64,000 bases of DNA from Escherichia coli (lineage in GTDB: Bacteria; Pseudomonadota; Gammaproteobacteria; Enterobacterales; Enterobacteriaceae), in NCBI RefSeq assembly GCF_016903815.1, contig NZ_CP069973.1. The stretch is one strand, 5' to 3'. Below, one piece after another: positions 25,487-35,851 of this stretch (position 1 is its first letter; each line of letters opens with the position of its first letter). A program made the translations under genes and the position numbers. The notes under the pieces were generated by a model. That model was not told where the DNA came from, did no database searches, and was given only the letters and a program-made list of their open reading frames with translations.

Positions 25487-28400
25487 TTACCCGTTTTCCT
25501 CATTAAGCTGAACAACACCATCAGTAATAAAGTTACCCTGGGCATCTTTAAGAACAACGGTCACCGTTATGCTATCCCCAGCGATATATATCGTTTTGTC
25601 CGCGACAATCGTTGATTGAGTTTTTGCCGCCGCACCTGGTTGTATTCCGTATAACGAGGACTTAATCTCCGTTGCCCATGTTTTTAATTTCAGACTGGCA
25701 ACTAGATTTTCCTCGGCAACCCATGCTGTCCAGACAATGGTATATTCACCATTATTCTGCTCGACCCACCGCATAGCATCGTGAGTTGCGCCGCCTACCG
25801 CGAAACTATCAATATAAGACTCGATGACTTCTGATGTCAGCCCTAAAGCAGGGTTACCAAACTCATCCCGCAACGTTATTGTGACGGTTAATGGCTCCCC
25901 GGCGATATATGCCGATTTATCTGTCCTGATAGCAGAATTTGCCTGCACCGGAGCACCGCTGTGGATGGAATAACTCTCTGATTGTTTACTGCTGCCCCAT
26001 TCAGACAACTTCAGCGTCGCGTGGTGAGAGTCTCCCGCCATTTGCGCCGACCATGTAGCAGTATAAACACCGGCGGTTTCAGACCATCCTCCTGAACGTA
26101 CGGCTCCTTCTACTGTTACGTTATCACCAGACAATAAGGACTCGCCCCCTTCAACCAGGTTACCGTGCGCGTCTTTCAGCGTCACGGCGACGGTTATAGT
26201 GTCACCAGCGGTGTAGGCGTTTTTATCCGTAGCGATAGTTGATGTGGCTTGCGCCGGAGAACCGGACTGGATGTCATAGCGATCTGACGTTACGCCATCA
26301 CTCCACGTCTGCAATTGCAGGTTGGCGTGCTGATTGGTACTGGCAATCGTCGCCATTCGGGTTGTGGTATACACGCCACCTGATTCAACCCAGCTTCCCA
26401 TTTCTGACGGGTCAGTGCCAGCCACCGTCAGCACACCATCAGCGGCTAACTGTGAAGCTGCACCGGTTACCAGATTATCGAACGCATCCCGGAGCGTTAC
26501 CGTGATGGTGATTGTCTCTCCAACCGTATAGTTCGACTTATTTGTTTCAACGATTGAAGTGAGTTGCGATGCATCACCAGGTACAAAGGTGACGTTCTGG
26601 CTCTGGCTGCTGTTGTTGATGCTGGCGGTGACTGTACTGGTGCCCGCCGTCTGGCTGGTGACACTGATCTCCACCGTGCCATCCGGCTTTGTGGTCATCG
26701 TCGGAGCAACCGTTGCGCTGTTGCCCGCCAACACGCTGACCGTCTGCCCGGCAAGCGCATTACCGAACGCATCGGTGACTCTCGCCCGCAGCATATTCGC
26801 CATTGCACCGTCTGCCACTGAGTCGTCCTTAATGACCACCAGGTCCGCGATCTTCGCTGTCCTGACATCGGCGATAAACGTCACGTTCCGGCTCTGACTG
26901 CTGCTGTTGATGCTGGCAGTGACTGCACTGATTCCCGCCGTCTGGCTGGTTACAGATATCTCCACCGTGCCGTCCGGCTTGGTGGTCACCGTCGGAGTGA
27001 CCGTTGCGCTGTTGCCTGCCAACACGCTGACCGTCTGTCCGGCAAGCGTATTACCGTTAGCATCGGTGACCTTCACCTGCAGCGTATTCGCCGTCGAACC
27101 GTCTGCCTCTGAACCATCCTTAATGACCACCAGATCAGCGATCTTCGCCGTGCTGACATCGGCGATAAATGTCACGTTCCGGCTCAGACTGCTGTTGTTG
27201 ATGCTGGCTGTGACCGCACTGATCCCCGCCGTCTGGCTGGTAACAGAGATCTCCACCGTACCGTCCGGCTGCGTGGTGACCGTCGGGGCGACCGTTGCGC
27301 CGTTGTCCGCCAACACGCTGACCGTCTGCCCGGCAAGCGCATTACCGAATGCATCGGTCACCCTCGCCCGCAGCGTGTTCGCCGTCGCACCGTCCGCCTC
27401 TGAACCGTCCTTAATAACCACCAGATCCGCGATCTGCGCCGTCCTGACATCGGCGACAAACGTCACGTTCCGGCTCTGGCTGCTGCTGTTGATGCTGGCA
27501 GTGACTGCACTGACTCCCGCCGTCTGGCTGGTGACTGAGATCTCCACCGTACCGTCCGGCTCTGTGATGACCGTCGGGGCAGTCGTTGCGCCGTTGTCCG
27601 CCAACACGCTGACCGTCTGCCCGGCTAGCGTGTTCCCGAACGCATCGGTCACCCTCACCCGCAGCGTGTTCGCCGTCGAACCGTCCGCCTCTGAACCATC
27701 CTTAATGACCACCAGATCAGCGATCTTCGCCGTGCTGACATCGGCGATAAATGTCACGTTCTGACTCTGACTACTGCTGTTGATGGTTGCAGTGACTGCA
27801 CTGACTCCCGCCGTCTGGCTGGTGACACTGATTTCCACCGTGCCGTCCGGCTCGGTGATCACCGTTGGGGCAGTCGTTACGCCGTTGTCCGCCAACACGC
27901 TGACCGTCTGGCCGCCAAGCGCATTACCGAACGCATCCGTCACCCTCACCCGCAGCATGTTCGCCGTCGAACCGTCTGCCACTGAGCCGTCCTTAATGAC
28001 CACCAGATCAGCGATCTGCGCCGTCCTGACATCCGCGACAAACATCACGTTCCGGCTCAGGCTGCTGTTGTTGATGGTTGCAGTGACTGTACTGATCCCC
28101 GCCGTCTGGCTGGTGGCAGAGATCTCCACCGTGCCGTCCGGCTGCGTGGTGACCGTCGGAGCAGTCGTGGCACCGTTGCCTGCCATCACGCTGACCGTCT
28201 GTCCGGCAAGCGCATTACCGAACGCATCGGTGACCCTCGCCCGCAGCATATTCGCCATTGCACCGTCTGCCACTGAGTCGTCCTTAATGACCACCAGATC
28301 CGCGATCTTCGCCGTCCTGACATCGGCGATAAACATCACGTTCTGGCTCGCGGTGCTGTTGTTGATGGTTGCAGTGACTGCACTGACTCCCGCCGTCTGG

Positions 28401-35851: not shown

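Follow-up and report, generated by a model that had tools for sequence, protein, structure and literature searches.

IS1-associated loss of the 3′ end of the inverse autotransporter gene air (eaeX/iatC) and of the adjacent eilA gene in Escherichia coli

We examined a 64,000-nt stretch of the Escherichia coli contig NZ_CP069973.1 (the window, throughout) that carries, at 25487..35851 on the − strand, an open reading frame (ORF) of 3454 aa with an ATG start. The identical coding sequence (CDS) in RefSeq is named ‘inverse autotransporter adhesin EaeX/Air’, and the protein scored 3016.5 bits against the NCBIfam model NF040978 (IatC equivalog domain, N-terminal, 1065 positions; cut-off 2400 bits), with residues 1-1065 aligned to model positions 1-1065. 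The intimin model NF033627 gave 402.5 bits, below its cut-off of 1400 bits, in an alignment confined to the barrel region, which rules out intimin (eae) in the strict sense. Directly upstream lies nepI (36053..37237, −), the conserved neighbour that, according to annotation and to related genomes, fixes the chromosomal position of air; the other flank, where eilA and the eip genes near selC would be expected, has suffered a deletion, and eilA is present there in relatives that are otherwise 100% identical. On this evidence we identify the ORF as a truncated allele of the known chromosomal E. coli gene air (= eaeX = iatC), which encodes a type Ve (inverse autotransporter) adhesin. The 5′ 3.6 kb of the gene is present in 754 of the 5,426 complete E. 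coli genomes from RefSeq that served as our comparison set, annotated either as ‘air: inverse autotransporter adhesin EaeX/Air’ or as ‘iatC’. By RefSeq naming and position, it is the same gene as Air/EaeX of strain 042 of enteroaggregative E. coli (EAEC), the enteroaggregative immunoglobulin repeat protein whose regulator is EilA (Sheikh et al. 2006, as cited in PMC4210603 and PMC3256949): it stands next to nepI, eilA and the eip genes follow in intact relatives, and the published air primers match perfectly. What sets the window allele apart is the loss of its last 353 codons, together with the neighbouring eilA and eipD and most of eipC.

The N-terminal part of the protein contains a β-barrel (residues 149-423; 34583..35407, −) that matched Pfam IAT_beta (PF11924) with an E value of 3.4e-107 and the structures of the invasin (4E1T, E 1.7e-79) and intimin (4E1S, E 3.3e-66) barrels. 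It precedes a C-terminal passenger composed of tandem Big_1/Invasin_D3 domains. Ahead of the barrel, a LysM match to the window protein reached only E 0.074 in Pfam, and a Pfam scan of the first 999 aa did not find LysM at E ≤ 10, which we do not take as absence. In 8 of 14 aligned homologues LysM was detected at E ≤ 0.001 in the same columns, AlphaFold2 modelled a β-α-α-β unit at residues 67-117 with a predicted local distance difference test (pLDDT) score of ~90, and the best Foldseek matches of this unit in the Protein Data Bank (PDB) were LysM domains, the periplasmic LysM of intimin (2MPW) appearing at rank 29. Together, these data support a divergent LysM-like periplasmic domain (residues 67-117; 35501..35653, −) that is weak by sequence. 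A periplasmic LysM is found in the large members of the family intimin, YeeJ, IatC and IatD. By analogy with intimin and invasin, the protein would consist of a signal peptide, the periplasmic LysM-like domain, a 12-stranded barrel and a passenger that would leave through the barrel and fold domain after domain outside the cell. An earlier note on this DNA, made from the letters alone, had proposed an intimin/invasin-family adhesin with a LysM-like N-terminus and an inverse-autotransporter barrel; the family assignment and the barrel are confirmed by the IAT_beta, NF040978 and 4E1T/4E1S matches, and the LysM-like N-terminus also holds, though weakly.

The passenger begins with about six non-repeated Ig-like domains of the Big_1/Invasin_D3 type (residues ~537-1149; 32405..34243, −), within which Pfam matches fell at residues 537-633, 639-727, 744-837 and 843-918. 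These are followed by 20 tandem Big_1 Ig-like units of 97 aa (291 bp) each (residues 1150-3089; 26585..32404, −), as delimited by repeat finding and protein alignment; Tandem Repeats Finder placed 20.0 copies of a 291-bp unit at 26585..32398, matching at 85% and free of indels. When the units were compared with one another, protein identity was 72-93% (mean 81.5%) and DNA identity 79-93% (mean 85.3%), and 47 of the 97 columns were invariant. After the array come three complete Ig-like domains and the first 48 residues of a fourth (residues 3090-3453; 25493..26584, −), recognised by Pfam Invasin_D3 matches and by the junction described below. This last domain begins at residue 3406 and would be ~104 aa long if it were not broken after 48 residues. 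Base composition along the gene is mosaic, with 53% GC in the barrel region, 61% in the 20-unit array, 50% in the post-array part and 40% in the tip-coding 3′ end of full-length alleles, which suggests parts of differing history. On the strand opposite the array lie many long ORFs, the longest of 285 aa (26239..32737, +; for instance 26907..27764 and 30750..31601); they are most likely by-products of a GC-rich (61%), stop-poor repeat and not genes.

We then asked how stable the repeat number is. The whole gene was found as a single ungapped piece of 10,359 nt with 100.0% identity in at least 60 complete RefSeq genomes, namely the best 60 of 755 matching records, which came from humans, cattle, pork, a dog, a wild bird and environmental samples. 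Since these records agree without a gap, the 20 copies are neither an assembly artefact nor unstable within the clone. For roughly 89 complete genomes the best match to this gene reaches at least 99% identity. One of the 60 records with 100.0% identity is O102:H6, and isolates of ST405 / O102:H6 have been typed as air-positive and eilA-positive (PMC7757869); we infer that the allele belongs to a phylogroup-D clone, probably ST405 / O102:H6. Between lineages the situation is different. Unit counts, derived from RefSeq CDS lengths and alignment end-points, were 20 in strain 7/2 (CDS of 3806 aa), 19 in WP4-S17-ESBL-08 (3709 aa), 16 in MS14387 (3418 aa) and 10 in AR_0077 (2836 aa), and 11 in SMS-3-5, whose length of 2934 aa was taken from Goh et al. 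These length differences are exact multiples of 97 aa, all full-length RefSeq air/iatC CDSs examined share the terminus GKSSGLCVEYY, and, across a spread sample of 60 genomes, the ends of the alignments step by 291 bp, which fits ~10 to 20 units. A search of a large protein collection with the N-terminal 540 aa returned, as its best 120 hits, only proteins shorter than 1000 aa, mostly partial N-terminal fragments; being of no use for a length distribution, these hits were used for alignments only. The number of IatC repeats thus does vary between lineages, from 10 to 20 units, a variation missed by the earlier survey of four genomes, in which Goh et al. found no evidence for it (PMC6714894). 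IatC of SMS-3-5 itself (EcSMS35_4024; Goh et al. 2019, PMC6714894) belongs to the same family by NF040978 and by locus, is ~91% identical in nucleotide sequence over the aligned part and is likewise built of LysM, barrel, Big_1 repeats and lectin cap; it is 9 × 97 aa shorter than the 3806-aa allele, which implies its 11 units, and it keeps the tip. The earlier note had counted about 20 almost identical repeats of roughly 97 aa and expected their number to vary by recombination. Count and length were exact (20 × 97 aa) and, as the best 60 of 755 records show, not the product of a collapsed or chimeric assembly; ‘almost identical’ was an overstatement at a mean protein identity of 81.5%, and the variation exists between lineages (10, 11, 16, 19 and 20 units), the number being fixed within this clone.

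Comparison with strain 7/2 defined what the truncated protein lacks. The full-length protein of 3806 aa contains ~33 Ig-like passenger domains, 20 of them in the tandem 97-aa array, and an invasin D4-D5-like tip. Of the 353 residues lost from the window allele, the first 56 complete the cut Ig-like domain; the rest make up another Ig-like domain, a D4-like Ig domain and the lectin-like tip. In the C-terminus of the strain 7/2 protein, Pfam Invasin_D4 was found with an E value of 8.7e-11, and the lost region aligned to D4-D5 of invasin (1CWV, chain positions 297-479) with an E value of 1.5e-19. An AlphaFold2 model of the last 401 full-length residues reached a pLDDT of ~80-97 across D4-D5, falling to 66 around residue 335, and a fold search with this model returned invasin 1CWV as the best match (E 2.7e-24), followed by FdeC and intimin 1F00. 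Two cysteines of the segment, C320 and C397, are invariant in the tip alignment, a pattern that fits the conserved disulfide of this lectin-like domain. In the 1CWV alignment, a Gln of Air stands opposite the integrin-binding Asp of invasin, and because of this replacement invasin-like integrin binding would not be expected. Air thus shares with Yersinia invasin (1CWV, 4E1T) and with intimin (1F00, 4E1S, 2MPW) of enteropathogenic E. coli (EPEC) a homologous barrel, a LysM-like fold, an Ig-like passenger and, in full-length alleles, the D4-D5-like pair of Ig and lectin-like domains; it differs from them by a passenger of ~33 Ig-like domains instead of 4-5, including the 20-unit array, and the window allele differs further by the deletion of its tip. 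A distal Ig plus C-type-lectin-like tip, equivalent to invasin D4-D5 or intimin D2-D3, is absent from the window ORF, which stops at residue 3453/3454 in IS1. Such a tip is not required for membership in the family, as the short IatA and IatB of E. coli have no lectin cap (Goh et al., PMC6714894).

The element at which air ends is a complete IS1 of 768 bp (24724..25491, +) with insA (24779..25054), insB′ (24973..25476) and terminal inverted repeats, annotated in the identical RefSeq record as an IS1 family transposase with programmed frameshift. Its right end adjoins air and its left end adjoins a fragment of a SipC-like gene. The TAA stop of the air ORF, at 25487-25489, lies within the IS1 right inverted repeat (...GGAGTCATTACC), so that the IS1 end supplies the final codon and the stop (GGG TAA). 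No 9-bp duplication surrounds this IS1; the two flanks, aggtactag and cgttttcct, differ, and it is therefore not a simple insertion. An insertion with the rest of air lying downstream was ruled out by the missing duplication together with the nature of the other flank, a fragment of eipC. In the intact locus of strain 7/2 (L002), the 3806-aa air is accompanied by eilA, an IpaD/SipD-like gene (eipD), a gene for a 376-aa hypothetical protein (the SipC-like eipC), the YopB/SseC-like eipB and a chaperone gene. The window is 100% identical to this locus on either side of the junction, which falls at L002 13209, and L002 13210..18522 (5,313 bp) is replaced by IS1. Strain WCHEC4533 (L005) provided the intermediate arrangement: an IS1 identical to that of the window is located within the SipC-like gene, with the 9-bp duplication CTAGTACCT on either side, while air, eilA and eipD are intact. 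The window corresponds to L005 minus 1991..7312, a stretch of 5,322 bp directly beside the right end of IS1, and the remainder, IS1 included, is 100% identical. The deleted DNA contained the last 353 air codons, all of eilA, the SipD-like eipD and ~80% of the SipC-like eipC, and has a GC content of 35-40% (40% in the air 3′ end, 35% in eilA and eipC), compared with 61% in the array. In the comparison set, the junction between eipC and IS1 was found in 16 genomes, six of which (strains 222, 103, AR_0015, 2779, 5283 and 98192) also carry the junction between air and IS1; between the window and strain 222 there is a single base difference in 25.3 kb. The earlier note had placed the stop codon inside the IS1 inverted repeat and had taken the native lectin-like C-terminus to be missing, and both points proved correct, the latter through the 1CWV D4-D5, Invasin_D4 and 1CWV fold matches. 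Its description of a 3′ end replaced by IS1 is right in that the C-terminus is lost at IS1; the event itself was larger, a 5,322-bp deletion that also took eilA, eipD and most of eipC.

These arrangements suggest a sequence of two steps. IS1 would first have inserted into the SipC-like gene eipC, producing the 9-bp duplication CTAGTACCT, and an IS1-mediated deletion of 5,322 bp beside the IS1 right end would then have joined that end to air codon 3454. Both steps are visible as states in sister genomes, and together they bear the classical signature of an IS1-mediated adjacent deletion: the element keeps its old junction at one end, has lost the neighbouring DNA at the other, and shows no 9-bp duplication where the new junction formed. 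Nothing sets the present case apart from the classical one, the mechanism, one-step or recombinational, being read from the end states, and nothing contradicts the structural reconstruction of the truncation.

What would such a truncation mean for the protein? According to the pathway known for intimin and invasin, from which our expectation is drawn by analogy, Air would be exported by Sec, anchored to peptidoglycan through LysM and inserted in the outer membrane by the β-barrel assembly machinery (BAM), and its passenger would leave as a hairpin, powered by the successive folding of Ig domains. The signal peptide, LysM, barrel and ~30 Ig-like domains are kept, so that export as a stalk is still possible, and a stalk of ~30 Ig-like domains and ~100 nm (at ~3.6 nm per domain, scaled from invasin) could still be displayed. 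The product would have no presumed ligand-binding tip and would end in a 48-residue domain fragment unable to fold. EilA is a HilA-like regulator that has been reported to modulate air and the eip genes (Sheikh et al. 2006, via PMC4210603), and the summary of that study in PMC4210603 mentions changed adherence and biofilm upon loss of an air/eilA-system gene. Growth in DMEM/LB-glucose has been reported to induce eilA. Because eilA is deleted, the truncated air is probably poorly transcribed. We consider it probable that truncated air is a loss-of-function remnant and that the locus is a decaying remnant of the eip/air island. Altogether, the locus reads as the air/eaeX/iatC gene, struck by IS1 in eipC and by an adjacent deletion, and probably reduced to a tip-less and poorly expressed remnant, a reading to which we assign a probability of about 0.9. 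Several points weigh against it. Recombination between two IS1 copies, after a second insertion, would yield the same product as a one-step adjacent deletion. A tip-less stalk might keep some activity. YgeH, the EilA/HilA homologue of ETT2, is among other regulators that might drive air without EilA, and the NCBI pipeline annotates the CDS as an ordinary ‘air’ gene and not as a pseudogene.

With respect to the mechanism, the deletion could have arisen if a second IS1 had inserted into air and homologous recombination between it and the IS1 in eipC had then removed the intervening DNA. Besides giving an identical end product without target duplication, this route would take advantage of the fact that IS1 repeatedly strikes the air 3′ end. 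Strain 1579, of the same clone, carries in air a simple insertion of a different IS1 variant with the duplication GTTTCGCGG, whereas in Survcare321 (L006; same clone, IS1 100% identical to that of the window) and in 22AR0747 (L012; another lineage, IS1 97.3% identical) the IS1 end lies at L002 13262, 53 nt beyond the window junction, and the deletions are larger, extending toward selC. Against this, none of the 5,426 genomes has an IS1 at the exact air site with the downstream gene kept, the air and IS1 junction being always accompanied by the deletion. We regard the recombinational route as unlikely and favour the adjacent deletion from the eipC copy.

With respect to function, the truncated gene might still encode a working adhesin or biofilm factor, a tip-less variant displayed through the barrel and ~30 Ig-like domains. 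Signal peptide, LysM, barrel and array have all been kept intact and in frame, and isolates from Boston and from Houston still carry the allele, as do two strains whose origin is not recorded. Intimin and invasin with truncated C-terminal passengers are still exported, which lends this possibility further weight. IatC of SMS-3-5 (2934 aa) is surface-located and promotes biofilm on overexpression, shows neither autoaggregation nor binding to the extracellular matrix (ECM), and is predicted to have a LysM and a C-type lectin cap (PMC6714894); its biofilm activity has not been mapped to the tip. Several observations speak in the opposite direction: the gene of the reported activator, eilA, is deleted, the protein stops inside an Ig-like domain, the receptor binding of intimin and invasin sits in the C-terminal superdomain of Ig and lectin domains that is missing here, and the locus is eroding independently in other lineages. 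On balance, persisting function seems doubtful, and a probable loss of Air function is the reading that we retain.

Erosion at the 3′ end of air is indeed recurrent. The flank common to the IS1 ends of Survcare321 and 22AR0747 is ATAATTGGGTTTACAACGGC, and an identical endpoint in two lineages points either to a very precise IS1 hot spot or to an exchange of the segment between lineages. In Survcare321 the IS1 deletion extends from air into the integrase gene on the selC side. Four further records have an IS1 close to the window junction in iatC. In the Bangladeshi stool isolate E600003 (L007 5001..10718), a deletion free of insertion sequences (IS) has removed the rest of iatC, eilA and eipB-D and joined the iatC array to the 3′ portion of the gene for the type III chaperone, independently of the event in the window. 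Altogether, IS1 ends in, or abutting, the last ~360 bp of the retained air, or just beyond, account for at least four independent events, and E600003 adds a fifth lineage with its IS-free loss of this region. It might be argued that loss of the Air tip and of EilA is selected: extraintestinal, hospital-associated clones would then be converging, as a pathoadaptation, on the removal of an adhesin that is immunogenic or costly, together with the EilA regulon; we hold this to be improbable. IS1 prefers AT-rich targets and the region is AT-rich, so that the clustering of IS1 at the air 3′ end could be explained without selection, and the pattern could equally reflect a mere AT-rich IS1 hot spot in a decaying island.

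Finally, the junction or the repeat count might be the product of misassembly, either through a chimeric joining at IS1 or through collapse or expansion of the array, given that assemblies classically go wrong at IS copies and long tandem repeats and that Goh et al. (PMC6714894) raised this concern for inverse autotransporter (IAT) genes, but this explanation is effectively refuted by the recurrence of the air and eipC junctions in 6 and 16 complete genomes, respectively, by the ungapped 100.0% identity of the gene in at least 60, and by the colinearity of both flanks with intact relatives.

The object was already known, as a named gene and an ordinary IS1-mediated deletion already present in public genomes, and the value of the finding is practical, not conceptual. 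Both air and eilA are scored routinely as virulence markers by PCR and by genome-based typing (PMC3256949, PMC7757869). The 600-bp product of the published air primers lies at 33906..34505, partly upstream of the pre-array Ig stretch. Because this amplicon is kept and the CDS is annotated as ordinary air, isolates with the deletion would be typed as air-positive; the allele scores air-positive and eilA-negative while Air function is probably lost. In addition, the nested set of genomes (intact locus; IS1 in eipC; IS1 plus the 5.3-kb deletion) offers a natural experiment on the tip, on EilA and on biofilm formation by the stalk alone.

On the other side of the IS1, the + strand carries what is left of the eip genes: a SycD/LcrH-type chaperone gene (21962..22459), a 60-aa ORF (22469..22651), the YopB/SseC-type translocon gene eipB (22707..24488) and the 5′ fragment of the SipC-like translocon gene eipC (24501..24728), which was recognised by comparison with intact loci and whose 75 codons read into the IS1 left end. 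The remaining eip genes (21962..24488, +) are thus left without eilA, eipD and an intact eipC. A second IS1 is present in inverted orientation at 18445..19212, with no 9-bp duplication; being only 93.4% identical to the air-side copy, it was ruled out as the donor of the latter. On one side it borders on 90 bp left over from the sugar efflux gene setC (19212..19301), and on the other it joins ykgR and genes for a GH31 glycosidase, an MFS transporter and a LacI-type regulator, none of which neighbours setC elsewhere. The arrangement, which strain 7/2 shares, is an older rearrangement associated with IS1. Farther along, selC (tRNA-Sec) and an adjoining tyrosine-recombinase integrase gene occupy 9403..10981, and since the integrase gene adjoins selC, the stretch up to the eip and air genes lies beside a selC-associated island.

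Beyond these genes, two ORFs annotated as ‘hypothetical’ (47304..48767, 487 aa, and 49047..49529, 160 aa; both −) lie between ilvN and uhpA, which are adjacent in K-12, and the pair looks like a small insertion. PADLOC gave no match to a defence model for these two ORFs, the eipC fragment or the 60-aa ORF. Between yicN and nepI, a short way upstream of air, a RelE/ParE-family toxin gene and a helix-turn-helix (HTH) antitoxin gene (37471..38131, +) are present in all air-positive loci inspected.

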